In this document: positions 1,387 through 48,700 of the stretch, in pieces
Numbering within the stretch: position 1 is the first letter of the stretch
How the letters are laid out: every line of letters starts with the position of its first letter
Source of the DNA: a virus
Reading direction: 5' to 3' (one strand)
DNA: 64,000 nucleotides
IMG/VR virus record: IMGVR_UViG_3300038701_000531
Span: 1,438-65,437 of that record
The notes under the pieces: model-generated
Told to the model about the DNA's origin: nothing
What the model saw: the letters and a program-made list of their open reading frames with translations, nothing else
Databases searched by the model: none
Translations under genes and position numbers: made by a program

Positions 1387-1638
1387 ATGACAGAAGTAGA
1401 ATTAGATACAAAAGATGTAGCAAATGCTATTGATGAATTACAAATCCAATTTGGTAATCAGGAAGTAGCAGCAGAGCAGATTAAAAGTATTATGGAATAC
1501 CTCAAAACTAAGTATGGTAAAGAGGAAGCTGATCGAATTAAGAAATTGGCTATGTTGATTCATAAAGACAAATATGATGTTACTATTGAGGAATATAATA
1601 ACATTGAAGAGCTTAATGAACAGGTTTATGGGGAGTAA
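1387..1638 (+). CDS. hypothetical protein
   Basis: 83-aa ORF, RBS AGGAG. Confidence 0.7.
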   Translation: MTEVELDTKDVANAIDELQIQFGNQEVAAEQIKSIMEYLKTKYGKEEADRIKKLAMLIHKDKYDVTIEEYNNIEELNEQVYGE

Positions 1639-1641
1639 GTT

Positions 1642-1818
1642 ATGTTATCTCTTATACTAAATATATGCTCTATTTGTTTTATTATTGTATATATTGTAAC
1701 CCTTACGGGAAGGTTAACAGGGTTTGATGTTAAAGAGGATGATATTATTCTATTATTAGGTTTTATCGCAGGTATTCAAGCTGACGTAATAGATATAAAA
1801 GATACTGTTAAGGGGTAG
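1642..1818 (+). CDS. small membrane protein (58 aa; absent from the ORF track)
   Basis: Manual translation MLSLILNICSICFIIVYIVTLTG...; RBS GGAG; hydrophobic. Confidence 0.5.
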   Translation: MLSLILNICSICFIIVYIVTLTGRLTGFDVKEDDIILLLGFIAGIQADVIDIKDTVKG

Positions 1819-1822
1819 GTAT

Positions 1823-2206
1823 ATGAGTAAGTTAGATAATCGTAAGTGGAAACCAATTATATTAAAAAGCTCTTTAAGGTGGTACACAGGGTATCAAGGG
1901 GACTATCATTTAGATAAAGAAGCTGGTAGAAGATATAATAGCACTCCATGTAGTGAAGGAGGTAAACACTACACAGATAAGCTAACAGTTAAACTAGCAG
2001 GTTATGGTCGAGGTAGGAGTGCTGCAAATTTCTATGTAGAGGATACTGAAGGTTATAAGTATATGATGAGTATGTCAGGTTTTTATAGTCTACTTGAGCA
2101 AGTATTAATTAAGGGAGTAACTATTAAGAGAGGTGGTTATTTCACAGCAACCTTTATGCAAACTAAACAAGGGGCTAATTATTTTATAGCACCTTATGAG
2201 GAGTGA
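1823..2206 (+). CDS. hypothetical protein
   Basis: 127-aa ORF in operon context. Confidence 0.7.
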   Translation: MSKLDNRKWKPIILKSSLRWYTGYQGDYHLDKEAGRRYNSTPCSEGGKHYTDKLTVKLAGYGRGRSAANFYVEDTEGYKYMMSMSGFYSLLEQVLIKGVTIKRGGYFTATFMQTKQGANYFIAPYEE

Positions 2207-3348
2207 GTATGAGCTTTAAACCTAAGAAGCCTAAAATAAAACCTTATGTACATAAGAAAAAAGATGACATAATTTATGATGATGAGGTAACAGCAGTTAT
2301 AGATTATGACTTAATATGCTTTAAAGCTGCTTCTGCTGGAGAGAAACGATTCATTATAGTTACTCATAAGCCTAGTGGAAGTAAAAAACAGTTTAAAACT
2401 AGAACTGAGTTCTATGGACATTATGCTAAAAAATCTGGTGGGTGGTTAGCAAAGACTAATAAAGAACGAGAAGAAAAAGGAAAAGAAATATTTCCTTTAG
2501 AGGACTTTGATATAGTTGATGATCGTAAAGTAGATGATATTAGTTTTATTTATAATTCTGTTAATAAAATGACAGCTAGAATATTAGATGCTTGTAAGAC
2601 TTCTACTTACAAAGCTTATTTAGGTTCAGGAGATAATTTTAGACATAAAGTAGCCACAGTAGAAAAGTATAAGGAAGGGCGTCAAGATTTAATTAAACCT
2701 CTGTACCTAGAGGAAACTAGGCAATATGTAAAAGATAAATTCAATGCAATAGAAATTAAAGAAAATGAAGATTTAACTAATCTAGAGGCAGATGATTATT
2801 TAGTCATAGAAGCCCATAAAGGGTATCAGGACTATTTAAAGACTAAGAGGTGCACTACCGTTCAGGTTAGTACTGACAAGGACTCCGCACAAGGAGAGGG
2901 GTTGTTTTATAATTATGATAAAATGAAAAAACCTTTTTTAGTTAAAGATTATGGACGGGTATTTATGTATCAACCGTCCTTAGACAGTAAAGAGGAAGTT
3001 AAGGGCTATGGTATGTGCTGGCTACTATGGCAAATGAGCGCAGGAGATTCTGCTGATACATATAAGCCAAGTAAACTAAGTAAAATGAATGTAGGTGATA
3101 TAGTTGCATATAAAAACTTAAAAGACACTAAAAATCTAAAAGAGGGTTTAGAAGCTACAGTTAGTCTTTACAAGAAAATGTACCCAGAACCTGTAACTTA
3201 CAATCATTGTATCACTGGAGAGGAAATAACTAAAGATTGGTTGGAACTAGCTAATGAATATTTTACCTTAGCTTATATGAAACGTTCTGAGAGTGATCAA
3301 ACTACCTTCACATGGTTATTAGAGGAATATAAAATTGAATATAAATGA
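2203..3348 (+). CDS. 5'-3' exodeoxyribonuclease
   Basis: IDYD, LEADD, STDKD and GDSADTY acidic motifs of the FEN/T7-exonuclease-like fold. Confidence 0.82.
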   Translation: MSMSFKPKKPKIKPYVHKKKDDIIYDDEVTAVIDYDLICFKAASAGEKRFIIVTHKPSGSKKQFKTRTEFYGHYAKKSGGWLAKTNKEREEKGKEIFPLEDFDIVDDRKVDDISFIYNSVNKMTARILDACKTSTYKAYLGSGDNFRHKVATVEKYKEGRQDLIKPLYLEETRQYVKDKFNAIEIKENEDLTNLEADDYLVIEAHKGYQDYLKTKRCTTVQVSTDKDSAQGEGLFYNYDKMKKPFLVKDYGRVFMYQPSLDSKEEVKGYGMCWLLWQMSAGDSADTYKPSKLSKMNVGDIVAYKNLKDTKNLKEGLEATVSLYKKMYPEPVTYNHCITGEEITKDWLELANEYFTLAYMKRSESDQTTFTWLLEEYKIEYK

Positions 3349-3601
3349 CGTTTTAGACTATATGAAAACTACAGACCTACATAAGTGGTGGTATGTAGAG
3401 GACTTGCGAGAGCATTCTTGGTCTTTGTATCAAGACGAGGTAAAGTGGGTAGTTGATGGGGAGGAGTGTAGTGCTGAGGTAAAACAAAGTACCACTGACC
3501 AAGGATTGTACTTTATTAATGCTGATAATGGTTGCGGAGATAATCTTACTTATATATTTGACACAGAGAAACAAGTATTAGAAGGCGAACTTGATGGATA
3601 A
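3335..3601 (+). CDS. hypothetical protein
   Basis: 88-aa ORF overlapping its neighbours. Confidence 0.65.
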   Translation: MNINDVLDYMKTTDLHKWWYVEDLREHSWSLYQDEVKWVVDGEECSAEVKQSTTDQGLYFINADNGCGDNLTYIFDTEKQVLEGELDG

Positions 3602-3830
3602 AATTAAAGACATGAGGGGAGTCCTCCTACAAGAAGGAGATGTTATTGCTTATGGTAGGTCTAGTAGGCATCACCCTATAAATATAGGAACTATAGAGGG
3701 CTTTGAAGAAGTAAGCGGCACTAATCGAGTATACATATTAGTTTTAGGTAAAGGTAACTCTAAAGTGGCTAAAATACCAAGTTATCACTCTGGTCGAATG
3801 ATAGTATTGCCATCACATTATATGGAGTAA
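3591..3830 (+). CDS. hypothetical protein
   Basis: 79-aa ORF, 'KDMRGVLLQEGDVIAY' phage motif. Confidence 0.65.
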   Translation: MMDKIKDMRGVLLQEGDVIAYGRSSRHHPINIGTIEGFEEVSGTNRVYILVLGKGNSKVAKIPSYHSGRMIVLPSHYME

Positions 3831-4536: not shown

Positions 4537-4932
4537 ATGAGTGAGACTAGAACAGATATTATAATGCGTTACCAACTTGGGGTAGCTGAAACCGTAGAAG
4601 AAGCTATTAGTATTATAGAACCGCTATTAGGTAAACCAGAAAGTGAAGATGAATTTTACTTTGAACCTAAAGGTAAATTTAAAGCTTCTTGGATTAATAA
4701 TAAAGTATTTCTAGATTACTACTTTGTTGATGGTGCAACTACTTATTGTGATTTAGATTTTAGTTTAGGATTTGAAGAAGTAAATGAGGTGAGATCAGAG
4801 TTTGATAATGTGTTTACAGGGGAACAAGATATTTATATTGAGGATTGTTTACAGCCTTATGTAGATGGCGCAACATTAAGAGTGTTTCAGTATTATGATG
4901 GTGGATGTAGTGGTATATCGGAGGTAGAATAA
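4537..4932 (+). CDS. hypothetical protein
   Basis: Start moved to ATG 4537 (RBS AGGAG). Confidence 0.65.
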   Translation: MSETRTDIIMRYQLGVAETVEEAISIIEPLLGKPESEDEFYFEPKGKFKASWINNKVFLDYYFVDGATTYCDLDFSLGFEEVNEVRSEFDNVFTGEQDIYIEDCLQPYVDGATLRVFQYYDGGCSGISEVE

Positions 4933-4933
4933 T

Positions 4934-5971
4934 TTGAATTTAACAAAGAAAGAATTAGATTATATAGCTGAGAAATTAGCAGATAATATTAGTAATAGAC
5001 AAATCGCAAGAGATCTTTGGGGAGAATCAAATCAAGAATATAAAGTTCGTAGGGCTATTAATAATGGTTTAGTAGGGGTTAATGATAATCAGGGAGATAA
5101 ATCATTAAATGAAGCTATTGATTTGGAAGTCTTTAACCCTAAAGTTAATGTTTATAGTATTGAAACTAGTAAGACAGTAGTACCAAACGTTACCCATTTA
5201 ATGATACCTGATACACAATGTAAGCCAGATATATCTTTAGATTATTTAAAATGGTTAGGAGAGTATATAGCAGAGAAGCAGCCCGAGGTTATTATCCATA
5301 TTGGAGACCACGCTGATATGGAGTCTTTGAGTTCTTATGACAAAGGGAAGGGTAAAGCTGAGGGTAAGAGAGTACAAAAAGATATTGACGCAGCTATTGA
5401 GGGTATGAATGTACTACTTAAACCTCTTTATGACCTTCAACAGCAACAGAGGAAAGAAGTAGGGGAGGTTCTGTATAAACCTAAGATGGTTATGACTATA
5501 GGAAATCATGAAGAAAGGATTATGAGGCATGTTAATGATAACCCCGAACTACAAGGTTTCCTTGATTATGATAATCTTAAGTATAAAGATTTTGGATGGG
5601 AGGTTTATGATTTCTTAAAACCTGTAATAGTTAATGGGGTAAGTTACTGTCATTATATGGCAAACCCTATGACAGGAAGACCTTATGGAGGTATGGCTAT
5701 GAACGTCCTTAAGAATGTAGGAGAGAGCTTCTGTATGGGACATAAACAATGTTTAGATGTTGCTACAAGGTTCTTACCAGCATCAGGGAAGCAGCAATGG
5801 GCTATAATTGCAGGGGCTTATTATGAGCATAACGAAGACTATAAAGGGCATCAAGGGAATCATCATTGGAGAGGGGTTGTTATGCAACATAATGTTAAAA
5901 ACGGTAGTTTTAATCCTATGTTTGTTGATTTAGAGTATCTAAAGGATAGGTATGGCGCACAAAGATTATAA
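4934..5971 (+). CDS. calcineurin-like metallophosphoesterase with N-terminal HTH-like segment
   Basis: PDTQ, HIGDHAD, GNHE, CHY and GHKQ motifs. Confidence 0.85.
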   Translation: MNLTKKELDYIAEKLADNISNRQIARDLWGESNQEYKVRRAINNGLVGVNDNQGDKSLNEAIDLEVFNPKVNVYSIETSKTVVPNVTHLMIPDTQCKPDISLDYLKWLGEYIAEKQPEVIIHIGDHADMESLSSYDKGKGKAEGKRVQKDIDAAIEGMNVLLKPLYDLQQQQRKEVGEVLYKPKMVMTIGNHEERIMRHVNDNPELQGFLDYDNLKYKDFGWEVYDFLKPVIVNGVSYCHYMANPMTGRPYGGMAMNVLKNVGESFCMGHKQCLDVATRFLPASGKQQWAIIAGAYYEHNEDYKGHQGNHHWRGVVMQHNVKNGSFNPMFVDLEYLKDRYGAQRL

Positions 5972-6033
5972 ATTTTACAATGTACTATAACTGAGTTTTG
6001 TTTCATCCAAAGAAATTATTTTAATAAATACTA

Positions 6034-6062
6034 TTGCTTTTGAATAATTTCTTTGCTACTAT
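6034..6062 (+). promoter_or_regulatory. sigma70-like promoter
   Basis: TTGCTT-17 nt-TACTAT with extended -10 TG. Confidence 0.5.
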
Positions 6063-6133
6063 AGTTACCAGTTCCTAGAGTTTTGTTGCAAACGTTATAT
6101 TTCAAAGGCTCTAGGTAATATTTTAAATAATTG

Positions 6134-6162
6134 TTGTGTTATCCTAATAAGTTTGCTATTAT
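6134..6162 (+). promoter_or_regulatory. sigma70-like promoter heading the TAACAGA gene array
   Basis: TTGTGT-17 nt-TATTAT with extended -10 TG. Confidence 0.55.
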
Positions 6163-6200
6163 TAATGCATCAATATAACAGAGAGAAAAACGAGGGATTT

Positions 6201-6383
6201 ATGTTTGATACATCGAAAATAAAGATATTTAAGTTGGCTGATTTATCAGAGCGAACACTTAAGGTTAAGACTTTTTCCGACTCCATTGACCATTCGCAAA
6301 TGACGATAGCATTCGATTTAAAAACGGGCGAACACTTTGTTTTGGAATTTAAACAAATTCCGCAATGTGTTGAATCAAATTAA
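6201..6383 (+). CDS. array gene 1, hypothetical (60 aa)
   Basis: Start moved to ATG 6201 after GAGG; ends TAA-C. Confidence 0.7.
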   Translation: MFDTSKIKIFKLADLSERTLKVKTFSDSIDHSQMTIAFDLKTGEHFVLEFKQIPQCVESN

Positions 6384-32503: not shown

Positions 32504-35500
32504 CTACCTCTGTGCCTGTGCATTAATATTATTCATCTTAACTCTAGTATCTACAGAGCCATTGCCTGAATCATCTATAGTGATAGTATTAGATACACTA
32601 AAACCTATACCCTCTAGAGCCGATAAAAGGATATCTTTAGCTCCACCTACTATATTAGTTCCAATTGCTTGGTCTATTGTAGCATAAGGACCTGACCAAA
32701 AAAATGTTTCTGCTAGGCTAGGTTCTGTTTTTTTCTGTGAGGACTTATCACTAGACCTCTTATCAACTTCACTATCTGACCCAAAACCTAAGTCTTTACC
32801 TAGTCTTCTTTCTACTTCACCCATAATGTTCTTAGAACTTAAAGCTATAACTTCTTCTATTAGTGCTTTAAGTAACATTAATTTAAGTATTACCCTACCT
32901 AGTGGGTTTAACATTAAGAGAAAACCTGCTGATAGTTTACTTACTGTGCTTTCAGCAAATTCACCGCCTACTTGGTTAAGGAAACCAAACATTTTAAGAA
33001 GCATACCTAGAGAACTTAAAGCTCTTAATATTGCCCCTGCTAATTCCCTAACTACACCAAAGACAACCTCAAAGGCTTGCCCTACAGCTTCTAGTGTTGG
33101 TTCTAGTTCTTTTAATCTTAGTGATAAATCTTTTAGTAGTTTGGCAAAACCTCTACCAAAACCTTTCTTAAAGATTGTATCTTGTGCTTTTTGTACTTGT
33201 GTAAAGAATCTACCTTGTTGTACTCTAACAGTCTTAAGAGCTTCAGATAATGCACCACCTTGTCTAGCGGCTTTAGCAAACTCTTTAGCTACTTTTGGAA
33301 GCACATCTTTAGCTAAGAGTGTGCCTTTTTCCATCATTGCAAATAATTCTTGCTCTGATACATTTAGAGCGCTGGCAAATACTTGTATACTTCCGGGAAC
33401 TTGTTCCAATTATATTCAATAAAAGTCGCTACACCTTTACCCGCCCATCAAGGGCTGCTATATGTCTCCATATAGTTTAGACTATATCTTAATCTACAGC
33501 ACTACCTGTTTAGATTCCTACCATTTCCCTCACCAATCGCTTGTGAAGTACGAGCTAAAGCTCTAGTCGTTGATCCTGCCTCTTATCAGAGGATTGGATG
33601 CTGATTGACCTTATCTTAATAATTTTTACAGGTCGCCAGTATATCTCTATCTGGTATTGTATATTAAGCTTAACAGGTGTTTCCAGCAGTTAAATAGGTT
33701 TTCATAAGGAGTTTCCTACCTTAAGCGCCTAACATTAAGCGAGTTGTTGCTTTCATTAAGTTTTTTCTGATAAGTTCGTTACTCTTACCACGTTCTCTAA
33801 GAACTGCTACATGTCTCCATGCAGATAGGATCATATCTTCACCCTCTCTAATGAGTAGGGGCTTTCTGTTTCGATTCTACTTAGAACCTACTCCCTTTCG
33901 GGATGACCTCTGAACTACTATTTTTTTTTTTTTAGAAATATAAATCTGAAATATCTTTATATCTTATCTTGTGTCGTATACGTTTCACTTCAATCACTTT
34001 AAGGTTTTTATTGGTAGATATCTTAGCTATGTTCTGGTCTGAGATACCTTCATTTATCTTTTCACAAACCCAACAAATAGTTTTTGTAGAGAACTCTGTT
34101 CTATACTGGTGAGGTACTTGATAAAGTTTTCTTACATGGAACCAAGTATCTCCAGCTTTTAGCTTCCGTAGAACATCCATACTTATGTTATAACTGTCGG
34201 AGAGGTCTCTTACTCTATAACCTTCTGACAATTTTTTACAAAGTTCGTGTGCTGTGTTCTCATCAAAAGAAGAGTTGTATAACCCCTCTCCTCTACTGCT
34301 TTCTAAGTTCTGTCCTGCGTGTTGCTGGTTTTGTGCCAAGGAACACCACTCTAAATTATCTAAGTGGTTATTTAGCTTATTACCATCTATGTGATTAACT
34401 GTTGTCCATATTTCAGGGTTAGGGTTGGGTATCCAAGCTTTTGCCAGTAACCTGTGTACTCTAGCGCAAGCTGCTTTACCATTAATACAAGTTCTTATAT
34501 ACCAGTACTTAGGTACTCCTTGTAAAGTGTGAGTCATCTCTTTTTCAGAATCTATCCTGAATATTCTACCACATTTACTAACAGCGTAAGCTGGGTATTC
34601 CTCACAAACTTTAACCTTATAGCCTTTTATTTCAAAAATATTTGACATTTATTTCTCCTACTGAACTTGGGAGTTAAAAAAAAAATAATAGCTGCGGATT
34701 GTCTCTATTATTAACCTTATTACCATACCACGCTCATTACAGCGTGTGCTAGTACCTTATCACTAAAGCACTGCGGTAGTCAATACCTAACAAGATATCC
34801 CCGCAATTAAGAAAGTTTTTACTTAATTATTACTAAAAAAGTGAGCCAAATCAACAACTTAGCTCTTCTGACATGATCGTGGTCTTATTGAGCATTTGTT
34901 GCAATGCCCTTAAACCACTTTTAGCTTGCTCAGGTGCAACTTTAAGAGCTGTAGCAAACTCACTAAAACCTGTAAACAATTCTTTTGTTTCAGTTCTAGT
35001 CAACTTACCTTTAGCTGCAAATTGCAATTTAGAGAAAGCATCTGTAGAGGCTTTTAAGTCTAAACCTAACCTTACAACTTCACTATCAACAAAAGCTAAA
35101 TCATTAGCAGCTAACTTAGCAGAACCTGATGATGCAAGCATTGACGCTCTCATTCCCTCAAAATCCTGACCTACTCTATTAATAGATTGAACACTATTTA
35201 ATACAGCAAAAGCACCTAAATAAGATGTAGCTAATTGTCTAGCTGATTCCTTCATCCTATTCTGTGCCCTAGTTAACTCATTAATCTTTTGTTTCGTTTG
35301 TGAGGAAACTCTATTTATCTTCCTCATCTCAGCAGCTTGAGCTTTAAGAGCCATAGTAGCGTCTATAGTAGACTTACCCATTTTCTCTTGCTCTAGTCCT
35401 AACTGCCTTAATTGTTTTTGTTGCTTCTCTGTGAGATTAAATAGTAATCTCCTACCCTCAACAGTTCTATTAAAGAAATCATCACCGCCTTTAAAAGGAG

Positions 35501-35954
35501 TTAAAGCTTTATTGTTACTATCCTTAGTAGATGTAAAAGCATCAGGTTTCTTAAATATGTTCTCTTTACCAAGTAAAGCATTTGTAGAATGAGTCTTTTT
35601 AAGTTCATTCTTAAATCTCTGTTGAGCTAGAGTAGCTTCTTGTATTTCATTTTTGAGTTTTAAAAACTCAGAGGCTTTGTTAATATTATTAAGTCTATCT
35701 TTGAAACCTACTAAGGTAGACCCCATCCTTTCAAGCCTATCATGTGCGCCTTGAATAGCTAACCTTTGCCTTTTAAGAGCATCACCACTAAATGCAGTGT
35801 CCATCTTATTAGCTTGAGCTACACTATTGGCTCCAATCATCTTTAAAGATTTATTAATTCTATTTAAACTATCCTCTATCTTTTTAACTTCTTTTGTATC
35901 AGCTTTAATACTAAGTTGAGCAAAGAAGTCTGCAATCGAGAATCCTGATGCCAT
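32504..35954 (-). CDS. tape measure protein, three exons (35954-34861, 33753-33738, 33406-32504; 670 aa spliced)
   Basis: Splicing restores TIMSEEL-KQQLA-EQVPGSIQ; exon lengths 1094+16+903 keep the frame. Confidence 0.9.
33407..33737 (-). mobile_element. group I intron (TMP intron 2, 331 nt, no ORF)
   Basis: 5' exon ends in U; P1 CGCU/GGCG; S element AAGATATAGTCT; P9 CTATATG-GAGA-CATATAG; terminal G. Confidence 0.9.
33754..34860 (-). mobile_element. group I intron (TMP intron 1, 1107 nt) carrying an HNH homing endonuclease
   Basis: P1 GAGCU/GGCUC; P10 AGUUGUUG/CAACAACU; AAGATATGATCC; GAGA-capped P9; terminal G. Confidence 0.92.
33932..34648 (-). CDS. intron-encoded HNH homing endonuclease (NUMOD4-like N-terminus)
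   Basis: 'YAVSKCGRI', 'RVHRLLAKAWIPNP..VNHIDGNKLNNHLDNLEW'. Confidence 0.92.
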   Translation of the reverse strand: MSNIFEIKGYKVKVCEEYPAYAVSKCGRIFRIDSEKEMTHTLQGVPKYWYIRTCINGKAACARVHRLLAKAWIPNPNPEIWTTVNHIDGNKLNNHLDNLEWCSLAQNQQHAGQNLESSRGEGLYNSSFDENTAHELCKKLSEGYRVRDLSDSYNISMDVLRKLKAGDTWFHVRKLYQVPHQYRTEFSTKTICWVCEKINEGISDQNIAKISTNKNLKVIEVKRIRHKIRYKDISDLYF

Positions 35955-35962
35955 TTAATCTC

Positions 35963-36543
35963 CTATTCAGTATTTGAAGGGATAAGGGCTTTTTCCGTTG
36001 CTGCAATGATTTCTAGCATTTCTAAAGCTTGAAAGAAATCTTCCAGAGACCAATCATTTCTTATTTGTAAATATGTCTCATTGAATTTACCTGAAGTGGC
36101 TATTCTTAGAGCTAACATATTAAAAGTAGGAATTGAAGTTTTCTTAGAGATATCTTCTATAGTTCTTGTGAGCTTGACATTGCCTTCTCTATCATCCCCG
36201 TTAGGTGAATTAGAGAATCTGGATCGAAAAAAGGTATCACATTTTCTGCTAAGGAAAACCCTACAACAGGGAGAAGATCTTTTCTAAATTCAGCAAAATG
36301 ATTATCAAAGTCTATTGCTTTTCCTTGGCAAGTAACTTCTTTAACTAAAGCTTTGATTAGCTTTAATCCATCTCTATGGCCTAAGATATTCTTTGCCATA
36401 CTACCTATTGAAGTGTCTTCTACATTACCAAGCATATCCATAACTTGAGATACAAAACCCCAACTCTGCTCTGCACCAAATGTAATTATTTTATATTCTC
36501 TGCCGTTAATCTCAGCAGATTTTTGTCTATGTTCTAGACCCAT
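35963..36543 (-). CDS. tail assembly chaperone G (36543-36157) and GT via -1 frameshift (to 35963)
   Basis: Slippery U UUU UUC at 36232-36226; -1 frame open to TAG 35963; directly upstream of the TMP. Confidence 0.8.
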
Positions 36544-45761: not shown

Positions 45762-48700
45762 TTAGTTATTCATATTATCCAACACATTCTTAGCTAGTGT
45801 TGGGTCAGTTGATTGATTTCTTGGTACAATTTTTATTACACGTTCTTTACAGAGGTAGTTGAATGCTGTTGCGCAAGCATCAGGCCAATCATCTTTCCTA
45901 TGTGCTGTTGATCTTTCTCCATCGAAAGACTCTAGCTCTTTGTAAAAAGCGTCTAGTGTAGCTTTATTAGGAAAAGATTCCTCTACTATTCTAACTAGCC
46001 CCGCTTGACAAGCTGCTGCAAAAGGTGAGAATTTAGTTAACTTAGATTTGTTAGTAGGCATTGCATCTGCCTTTACTATATAACCCTCAGATAATAATTT
46101 CTTAGCGGATTCCTGAAACTCTACAATACCAGCTTGACCTACATCTTTAGGTAGTATTATAGGGACTTCATCTCCATCAGCTTCTGCTTGGTCTTTTATT
46201 AGCGCATCTCTTTCTCCAGCTAATCTACAAAACTTACCATAGATATCTGATTTCTCATCTTTAGCTGATGGTATAAAATCTGCTATGATATAATAAATAC
46301 CATTCTCATCTTTTTCCATTCTAATAGAAGCTGTAGGGTCTACATATCTATTTTTCTCGCTGGGTATACTAGCACCTTTATCCCAAGCTCTGCATTTAGA
46401 GGTCTTACATATAGGATAAGTTACATTTTCAACCCAATCTCTACCCCAATAATTACTACCCTCTGCTCTTGCATACCAGTTACCTTCAAGTAGTCTTGAC
46501 CTCTCTACTCTAGGGAGTGAATTTAATTCTGCTAAATACTTGGGGTTTTTCTTGATTAATATTGGATTATCAAAAATAGTACCCGCAATGAAAGTAAAAG
46601 ATTTAGGCTGTACTGTAATGTATTCTTTATCTATAGGATTCCAAACCTTACAAGCGTCAGGAAAATCTGCTATGATTTCCTCTGCACTATTTCTAAATAC
46701 AGGTTTCTCGTCTATTACTATATAATACCTAATTTTACCCTGCTTCTCAGGGTCTGGTAATCCAGTTTCATCTAGATACCACTCAATCCAATTTAACACC
46801 CAACTATCAGCATCTGGATTACAAGAACCGAAAGCATAAGAATCACTTTCTGCTCCAGAACGTAGTCGAGATAGTAGATATGTGAACTGTCTTTCTGTAA
46901 AGTGGGTTAGCTCGTCAAAACCAACAAAAGAGTATTGTACTTTTATGTTCATAACTATTCGTTAGGTAGTTACCGCTAATTAAAGCTGCTATATGTTTCC
47001 ATATAGATCGGACTATATCATCATCCTTTTCAGGACGCCTTGCGCTTCGAGTATCAATAACTTATACCCTACGAGTTTCCTCTAGTCTCTGCACTCACCT
47101 AAAGTTTAATTATAGGCTAGCTCAGGATTATCTTCAGCATTACTTGTTAAGACTTCCCCTGAATTCACAAGGTTTGCAACTTATATTACTATAAGAGGGG
47201 GCTACAAATTAACCCTTGATGGTCTTCGCAGTTATCTTCATGCTGCATGTGAGCAAATGTTAAGGTTGCCCCACTTGGAAATTCATGTTGATACTGCGGT
47301 TTATTTCTAGTTTTGGTTTTAAAAGGTCGGTACATCTTTTGGCTCTCAGGCCAAAGTCCCCCAGCACCTACTAATTGAGTAGTGACCCTACGAAAGAATA
47401 TACCATTAAAATTGGGGTCATGTACATGCTGCAAAGGGTGCATCAACATTAAGTGAGAGTTATGAGTAACTATAAAATCTTTGGTAATAAACTGTTTATC
47501 GTCCCCTGTAATGGATATACAAGTTGAATAATCTCTACCTGTCAATTCTACACTAACAACCCTATTCTTAATTTTCTTAGGTTTACACCGTTCTTTCTTA
47601 CGAGTTAAATGAAATATATCCGCCCCATTGGGGTGTCTAATATATAGTATATAAGCTTTACCGTAAGGAGACGGTGTTTTCTTCTCAGTTATAGTTGCAG
47701 TACCACCTAAACTTCTAATTAAGTATTGCATATCCCTAGCTAATTTAGAGGATACCGTACAGAACTCTAAAGAGGTATCTAAGTTAGCGCACCCATCAGT
47801 ATCCATAAGACCTCGTAGTAGTTCGAGTCTATTATTGTAAGTACTATTTAAGTACTCATCTGGAATACTTTTTGTATAAGATTTATGTCCAAATAACCCC
47901 AAGTCAATAAGGTCGTCTTTTATGTTATGTATTCCATAAGCGTACTGAGACGATCTTTTATTAATTCTATAACCTAGTGACTTTAATCTATCTATAATTT
48001 CCTTATCCGCAGACGTAATAGCTACTTCTTTATTAATAGATCCATCACCTAATAAACACCCTACTAAGTAGGGATGTAAGGTATGTTCTTTACCTTGAGA
48101 ATATTCTAGGTTGGTGGGTAAATCAATTAAAGGACAACGTCTACGAGCGCCTTTAGGTTTTCCATATTCTTTATCTAGTATACTTTTTAATTTTAAAGTA
48201 TCTACAGTCTTGCGATTATCCTGCCCATCTCCTGCTATAGAAATAGTCCATAGATGTTCTCCACATACCTCTACATTTCCTCCGTCTTGGAAAGTAACTT
48301 TATAAACATCTTTCTTAGGCTGAGGATATATCGCTAAAACTTTTTCGATATTACCTTTAGACCCTATCACAGAGTTTCCTACAGAAATATTTTCTATATT
48401 TACCCAACCAGTATCAGTTAGTACTGGAGTACCGTGTTTTAATGCTTTTCCCGAACCAGCCTTGGGATTGTTATGTAGCTCGTTATACTACTCTCTGATT
48501 TACCAGAGTATCGGACTATATCTTAGCTTTACGCTCCCCCCGTTTCGAGTTCACTTGAACCCTACTTCCTCTCGGAATAGTCTCTACGCTCGGATATTAA
48601 TCCTAGCTCGGTATTAGCATATCTTTAGACTTAGCTTTCACCGAATTAGAGGGGTATATTAAGGTGGAACCACTGGATTTTCAAGCACCACCGTAGATTA

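Follow-up and report, generated by a model that had tools for sequence, protein, structure and literature searches.

The tape-measure transcript of the cholera (Vibrio) phage ICP1 is joined from four exons after removal of three introns, as established by RNA sequencing, reverse-transcription PCR and Sanger sequencing (Barth et al. 2023, PMC10448857). The middle intron usually bears an HNH-3 nuclease, and isolate M4 carries nucleases in the first and third introns instead (PMC10448857). In tape-measure genes of Bacillus cereus-group prophages, the group I introns TMP-IVS1, TMP-IVS2 and TMP-IVS3 have been described (Tourasse and Kolsto 2008, PMC2504315); there, similar introns occupy different sites through changed guides, and different introns are found at one site (PMC2504315). 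The tail tube gene orf142 of Staphylococcus phage Twort contains three group I introns, the second and third of which are separated by an exon of 23 nucleotides (nt) (Landthaler and Shub 1999, per PMC10136302, PMC11878797). Here, a related arrangement is described in a stretch of an uncultured virus record in IMG/VR (IMGVR_UViG_3300038701_000531, 70,872 bases, estimated to be 78% complete), of which 64,000 nt were analysed and are referred to below as the window. The locus in question is best explained as one myovirus tape-measure gene colonised by two independent mobile group I introns that flank a 16-nt coding micro-exon, a reading to which we assign a probability of about 0.9. It is carried by the sequence anatomy of the locus, the family membership of intron 2, the conserved structure of intron 1, the continuity of the exons in relatives and the correspondence with ICP1.

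The interrupted gene, 3451 nt long in its genomic form, is made up of the following parts, with the amino acid (aa) content of coding segments where relevant.

35954-34861, minus strand: tape-measure exon 1, 1094 nt; codons 1-364 and the first two bases of Leu365; ATG at 35954 with GGAG 5' of it; ends GAAGAGCT
34860-33754, minus strand: intron 1, group I, 1107 nt; houses an HNH homing-endonuclease gene
34860-34649, minus strand: 5' ribozyme half of intron 1; P1, P2, the 5' strand of P3, P4-P5 with extensions and the 5' strand of P6
34859-34843, minus strand: internal guide of intron 1, read from the sequence
34648-33932, minus strand: gene for a 238-aa HNH homing endonuclease, set in the P6 loop of intron 1 and served by an AGGAG ribosome-binding site of its own
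33931-33754, minus strand: 3' ribozyme half of intron 1; the 3' strand of P6, J6/7, P7, P7.1, P7.2, the 3' strand of P3, P8, J8/7, P9 with extensions and the terminal G
33753-33738, minus strand: micro-exon AAAGCAACAACTCGCT, 16 nt; as RNA, AAAGCAACAACUCGCU gives the third base of Leu365 and codons KQQLA
33737-33407, minus strand: intron 2, group I, 331 nt, without an open reading frame (ORF)
33406-32504, minus strand: tape-measure exon 3, 903 nt with the stop counted; 300 codons, the first five reading EQVPG; begins GAACAAGTT

Joined, the exons (1094 + 16 + 903 = 2013 nt) read ...TTIMSEELKQQLAEQVPG... at the junction, with the two joints reading ...TTIMSEELKQQLAEQVPGSIQVF..., and encode 670 codons and a stop. 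The predicted ligated RNA is ...GAAGAGCU-AAAGCAACAACUCGCU-GAACAAG..., and the predicted junction peptide spans SEELKQQLAEQVPG. Both introns have the borders of group I elements. Intron 1 is preceded by U, ends in ...TTAATG and has an in-frame UGA three codons in; intron 2 opens with an in-frame UAA and ends in ...AATTG, followed by GAACAAG. Other ways of reading the transcript yield truncated products: 367 aa if translation continues from exon 1 into intron 1, 378 aa if the micro-exon is skipped, which shifts the frame, and 370 aa if intron 1 alone is removed, because an in-frame TAA opens intron 2. A single large intron spanning 34860-33407 was rejected, as exon 1 joined straight to exon 3 goes out of frame and stops at 378 aa. 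The initial annotation, made from the letters alone, had given these exon and intron boundaries and sequences, the 670-aa product and the consequences of skipping and of intron 1 retention; on re-reading, its coordinates and letters proved exact to the base, and the length and frame claims held.

Independent evidence that the three segments belong to one reading frame comes from relatives. A tape-measure gene on another IMG/VR contig, L005, whose protein is 60% identical, lacks intron 1; its DNA reads ...GAAGAATTAAAACAACAACTCGCT and then enters an intron at the site of intron 2, so that the micro-exon sequence is contiguous with exon 1 and the spliced reading is SEELKQQLA-EQVPG (the hyphen marking the intron position, here and below). 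The L005 intron is 79% identical to intron 2 over 263 nt. In relatives with no intron at either site, the protein runs through without a gap, as EELRQQVGE in L006 (667 aa), EELKNQLGE in L007 and EELRLQLAE in Alteromonas phage PT11-V22, and the micro-exon residues align with RLQLA, KNQLG and KGQLG in relatives. In a profile built exclusively from nine relatives that lack introns, positions 4-346 are matched by exon 1 and positions 352-649 by exon 3, and the five positions between them (347-351) correspond to KQQLA. The spliced product matches this profile as one domain (4-648) at 512 bits, as compared with 275 and 208 bits for the separate pieces. A spliced-threading program that uses only a U before the intron, a G at its end and protein similarity returned introns at 34860-33754 and 33737-33407, exactly the four boundaries proposed; run on ICP1 for control, it recovered four exons separated by three introns.

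The intron 1 site of L005 (6084-6100, compared with window positions 34855-34866 and 33750-33753) differs from that of the window by three synonymous changes, GAA TTA AAA as opposed to GAG CTA AAG. These changes would be expected to break the P1 helix of intron 1, and they would fit either co-conversion of the flanking exon or resistance of the empty site.

That the interrupted gene encodes a tape-measure protein is supported from several directions. Exon 1 matches PHROG tape-measure families to E 1e-41 and the exon 3 ORF matches PHROG to E 1e-37. In Pfam TMP_3 (PF20155), the halves cover adjoining profile positions, 3-111 (to residue 365) and 115-173, and each alone falls under the cut-off (27.7 and 26 bits vs 41). 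Tape-measure profile matches thus end at residue 365 and resume at exon 3 residue 1 or 2, leaving four or five positions uncovered. The gene lies between a tail chaperone and baseplate genes, and its neighbours include a tail sheath, two tube-like proteins and a baseplate hub; this is a standard myovirus tail module. The PHROG and TMP_3 matches, the profile of intron-free relatives and the position in the tail module together uphold the tape-measure assignment that had been proposed at the outset. Directly upstream (35963-36543, minus strand) lie a 128-aa tail-chaperone gene and then a 51-aa ORF, which may form a chaperone frameshift pair. Elsewhere in the window (46989-47221, minus strand), the terminase region contains a third group I intron, at 99.7 bits. 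DNA of this virus is present in alga-associated metagenomes, and a megablast search of the locus against 50,697 phage records gave no match.

Intron 2 is a clear member of its family. It matches the complete Rfam group I model (RF00028, positions 1-253; window 33747-33458) at 88 bits (E 4e-21), well over the curated cut-off of 50 bits, so that a check with covariance models, suggested with the original prediction, came out in its favour. In the Rfam alignment, CGCU at the end of the micro-exon and UAA, with which the intron begins (CGCU-UAA), stand opposite UUAGGCG, and the U-G wobble of this P1 helix falls exactly on the proposed splice site. The same alignment agrees with the earlier assignment of micro-exon nt 13-16 to the P1 of intron 2 (CGCU/GGCG).

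Intron 1 is recognised by Rfam in two parts that flank its nuclease gene, with RF00028 matches of 17.6 bits over P4-P6 (34805-34645) and 22.8 bits over P7-P9 (33962-33807). The ORF-bearing third intron of ICP1 M4 gives a like split pattern under the threshold (17.2 and 16.5 bits). When the ORF is deleted from the sequence, the helices P3 (CUUUCU/AGAAAG), P4 (UGCGGG/UCCGCA) and P7 (GGUCAU/AUGAUC) can be read, as can P7.1, P7.2, P8, P9 and the terminal G; P5 carries long extensions, and P6 forms a long stem, rich in A and U, that encloses the nuclease gene. The intron 1 halves were aligned with seven related introns from the same hot spot, eight sequences in all. Compensatory changes affect 18 of 24 consensus pairs in the 5' half and 13 of 18 in the 3' half, in P2, P4-P5, P7.2, P8 and P9, and the J8/7-P7 block GAAGAUAU(A/G)(G/A)UC is conserved among the eight.

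The guide of intron 1 pairs on both sides of the excision. Its P1 is formed by the last five bases of exon 1, GAGCU, with GGCUC (intron nt 14-18, 34847-34843), ending in a U-G pair. Its P10 is formed by intron nt 2-13 (AGUUGUUGAUUU, 34859-34848) with micro-exon nt 1-12, all but one of the 12 positions being Watson-Crick pairs. The pairing of this guide with the micro-exon had been claimed previously and stands, although its extent does not: rather than being confined to nt 5-12, it takes in nt 1-12. This match is the sole best site in the 3451-nt gene (the runner-up reaches 9 of 12), and 11 Watson-Crick pairs are reached anywhere in 25 of 1000 shuffles. These statistics count Watson-Crick pairs only, a version with G-U pairs having been dropped: once G-U pairs are allowed, the U/G-rich guide reaches 11 of 12 in almost every shuffle. 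Since the guide is undistinctive on that count, P10 alone does not prove the site; the predicted site of intron 1 is, however, placed independently by protein homology. With the Rfam matches, L005, the profile of intron-free relatives and the threading result, the initial structural proposal of a tape-measure gene with two group I introns and a 16-nt coding micro-exon almost wholly taken up by guides is borne out.

The nuclease encoded in intron 1 matches Pfam HNH_3 (PF13392) at 27.9 bits, over a cut-off of 24.8, and PHROG 59 at E 4e-41. It is 49% identical to ICP1 gp80/hdgA over its full length (residues 4-238, E 2e-82); it is intact and probably mobile. Contigs in the best DNA run break at 33824-34033, where word depth rises two- to four-fold (2130-3800, compared with about 890-1140). 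This rise suggests that other copies or strains in that sample also contain the nuclease gene's 3' end and the A-run; no second copy of 33824-34033 is present in the window. Among DNA contigs of four runs, none joins across either intron or represents an intron-free allele, gaps in run X2 being uninformative.

Insertions at this point of the gene are common among relatives. When related IMG/VR loci were compared, the stretch was interrupted in 18 of 28 and intron-free in the remaining 10. Threading places the introns at about ten sites in roughly 85 nt of coding sequence, at -53, -44, -33, -26, -8, 0, +11, +16, +28 and +31, where intron 1 of the window stands at 0 and intron 2 at +16; individual sites may be off by a base or two, and doubtful ones (in L021 and at the end of L031, both cut by a contig end, and in L035, which contains a stop) were left uncounted. 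The locus L031 (IMGVR_UViG_3300008255_000636, 4843-6373) has its coding sequence broken five times within 53 nt by tandem group I introns, at -53, -33, -26, -8 and 0, separated by micro-exons of 20, 7, 18 and 8 nt; four of these introns score 57-83 bits in Rfam, and the fifth bears a nuclease and is cut by the contig end. L034 (IMGVR_UViG_3300025655_001428, 1540-3305) has four introns and exons of 20, 7 (GATGAGT) and 26 nt, and the nuclease ORF in its fourth intron looks frameshifted, with a short first frame followed by 197 aa. In ICP1, two records place the introns after ...AUGGCU (-8), after GAAGAACU (0) and after ...CUGGGU (+16), with exons of 8 and 16 nt. These loci add to the evidence that in marine phages one conserved stretch of this tape-measure family, QM..KG....EELK.QL.E.LP, is a crowded target of group I introns together with their nucleases. 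The view that twin introns in a tape-measure gene are unusual was therefore overstated: introns at the same two sites splice in ICP1, tape-measure introns were reported from Bacillus in 2008 (PMC2504315), and nearly two-thirds of the related loci compared here are interrupted.

Intron 2 of the window (33407-33737) is 72-76% identical over 106-143 nt to the -8 introns of Pseudoalteromonas phage PH357 and ICP1 (L002:3107-3448, L004:4472-5392, L008:3972-4301), and unrelated introns of the same genome have merely core blocks of 22-47 nt in common with the tape-measure introns. The +16 and -8 sites both read GCU-GAA, which hints that one ribozyme lineage may have moved between look-alike sites by retuning its guide. 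An attempt to define lineages by single-linkage BLAST was set aside, as nearly all ribozymes merged into one cluster, and best-hit lists were used instead.

The anatomy of the locus points to a simple course of expression. Transcription would yield a precursor of about 3.45 kb, in which each ribozyme is expected to fold and to self-splice with a guanosine cofactor. Intron 1 would define its 5' site through P1 (GAGCU/GGCUC, with U-G at the cut) while holding the micro-exon through a 12-nt P10, and the 5' site of intron 2 would be set by P1 pairing with the four bases that end the micro-exon (CGCU/GGCG). As the guide pairings tile the micro-exon (nt 1-12 and nt 13-16) without overlap, the sequence imposes no obligatory splicing order; either intron could leave first with the exon still included, and the three exons would then be joined into the message for the 670-aa protein. 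The early in-frame stops, UGA after three codons in intron 1 and UAA at once in intron 2, would keep translating ribosomes out of the ribozyme cores. The HNH nuclease, expressed from the P6 loop, probably cuts intron-free alleles of co-infecting relatives and so spreads intron 1 by homing. For this phage we thus infer that the transcript splices, that the order of the two reactions is free and that the nuclease is active. Skipping of the micro-exon looks disfavoured on sequence grounds, because the introns share no detectable similarity and each guide fits the other exon poorly.

Several observations weigh against the two-intron reading and must be set beside the evidence for it. No RNA run containing the locus sequence was found, so that splicing in this phage is deduced from its DNA. 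Intron 1 stays below the Rfam cut-off as a single match, a shortfall that is accounted for by the inability of the model to bridge a 717-nt ORF. The P10 of intron 2 is weak, with 4 base pairs, and off by one base. Finally, the sequence comes from a contig of an uncultured virus at 78% completeness, and viability of the genome is assumed. This last point leaves room for one of the introns to be splicing-defective and the contig to represent a dead or defective genome variant, as might be met in an incomplete metagenomic assembly. Such a variant is extremely unlikely, given that neither intron has lost a core element, a guide pairing or the terminal G, that the nuclease ORF is not shortened by comparison with ICP1 gp80, and that the same sequence is present at high depth, without variants, in a source-like run. 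It is also very unlikely that the gene is simply in pieces, with the 367-aa and 301-aa ORFs translated separately as a two-part tape measure and the region between them reduced to a free-standing nuclease cassette and the remnants of decayed ribozymes that have lost the ability to splice. Relatives are indeed annotated in this way by gene callers and in several public records, and the lack of an RNA run for this phage is compatible with such a reading. However, the exon 3 ORF offers no start but a TTG inside the intron and lacks a ribosome-binding site; the break cuts through the middle of the motif that is best conserved in the TMP_3 domain; the five missing residues are encoded exactly between the two ribozymes; intron 2 is a full-scoring group I intron; and the homologous locus of ICP1 splices.

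A different possibility, raised with the initial annotation, is that splicing is regulatory, so that the order, efficiency or skipping of the reactions sets the amount of full-length protein or yields a functional N-terminal fragment of 367-378 aa, gating tail assembly. Put more specifically, the micro-exon would be a control point at which inclusion, skipping and retention compete to set the ratio of full-length protein to the 367-378-aa fragment and thereby time or limit assembly; if this were true, the tiling of guides over its 16 bases would be a selected feature. Skipping has been documented in tandem arrangements of group I introns, where it affects the 23-nt exon of Twort orf142 and a 34-nt exon of Coxiella 23S rRNA (PMC10136302), and skipping in the window would give the truncated 378-aa product. 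In Twort, however, skipping is tied to two highly similar introns able to form one large ribozyme (PMC10136302), whereas the introns of the window are without detectable mutual similarity and differ in their guide sequences. The guide of intron 2 pairs with just 3 bases at the end of exon 1, and the P10 guide of intron 1, read from the sequence, matches the start of exon 3 poorly. Furthermore, relatives with zero to five introns in the stretch all encode the same protein motif, a pattern that looks like neutral parasitism. Regulatory splicing is thus decidedly improbable, and we give equally little credence to the micro-exon as a control point; gating of tail assembly by splicing order or efficiency is not supported. 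The preferred reading of two mobile introns in one gene is best understood as plain parasitism that the ribozymes render harmless.

The main value of this result lies in annotation. Gene finders are blind to a 16-nt exon and present the locus as two unrelated ORFs and a nuclease, and therefore the length of the tape measure, and any tail length inferred from it, is misread. A tape-measure protein spans about 1.5 angstrom per residue in phage lambda, so that 670 aa would correspond to a tail of roughly 100 nm. Several public records of relatives carry the same error: in KX822733 (L002), OZ196882 (L003) and the ICP1 records (L004 and L008), one coding sequence is labelled "tape measure", those downstream are "hypothetical proteins", and the 8- and 16-nt exons are unannotated. 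No new mechanism is revealed.

Among described systems, the T4 introns in td, nrdB and sunY have the same architecture as those of the window, being of subgroup IA2 with P7.1 and P7.2, a nuclease ORF that is placed in a peripheral loop and has a ribosome-binding site to itself, and in-frame stops soon after the intron begins; unlike the window, they are single introns in genes of nucleotide metabolism, and they encode nucleases of the GIY-YIG or other types, not HNH-3. The Bacillus TMP-IVS elements share with the window the use of tape-measure genes as repeated intron targets, but they reside in siphovirus-type prophages of Gram-positive hosts, at widely spaced sites of a protein of over 1200 aa, and do not delimit a micro-exon. 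Twort orf142 resembles the window in having tandem IA2-type introns in a phage tail gene around a very short exon that is not a multiple of three. The gene and host are different, however, and the introns of Twort are near-copies whose exon is skipped part of the time, whereas those of the window are unrelated in sequence and enclose a shorter exon of 16 nt. The closest counterpart is the ICP1 locus (gp81/gp80/gp79). It has introns at the same two sites, after GA(A/G)CU and 16 nt further on, and hence a 16-nt exon as well; its tape-measure protein is homologous (23.6% identity overall, with the EELKxQLxE motif common to both); and an HNH-3 nuclease 49% identical to that of the window occupies the P6 loop of its site-0 intron. 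ICP1 differs in having a third intron 8 nt upstream, and with it an extra 8-nt exon, at a site that is empty in the window. The +16 ribozyme of the window is closer to this -8 intron of ICP1, with 72-75% identity over 106-143 nt, than to the ICP1 intron at +16, and the phage is, unlike ICP1, an uncultured marine virus from an alga-associated metagenome. Judged by its sequence, the locus in the window is a two-of-three intron version of the ICP1 layout, which is known to splice.

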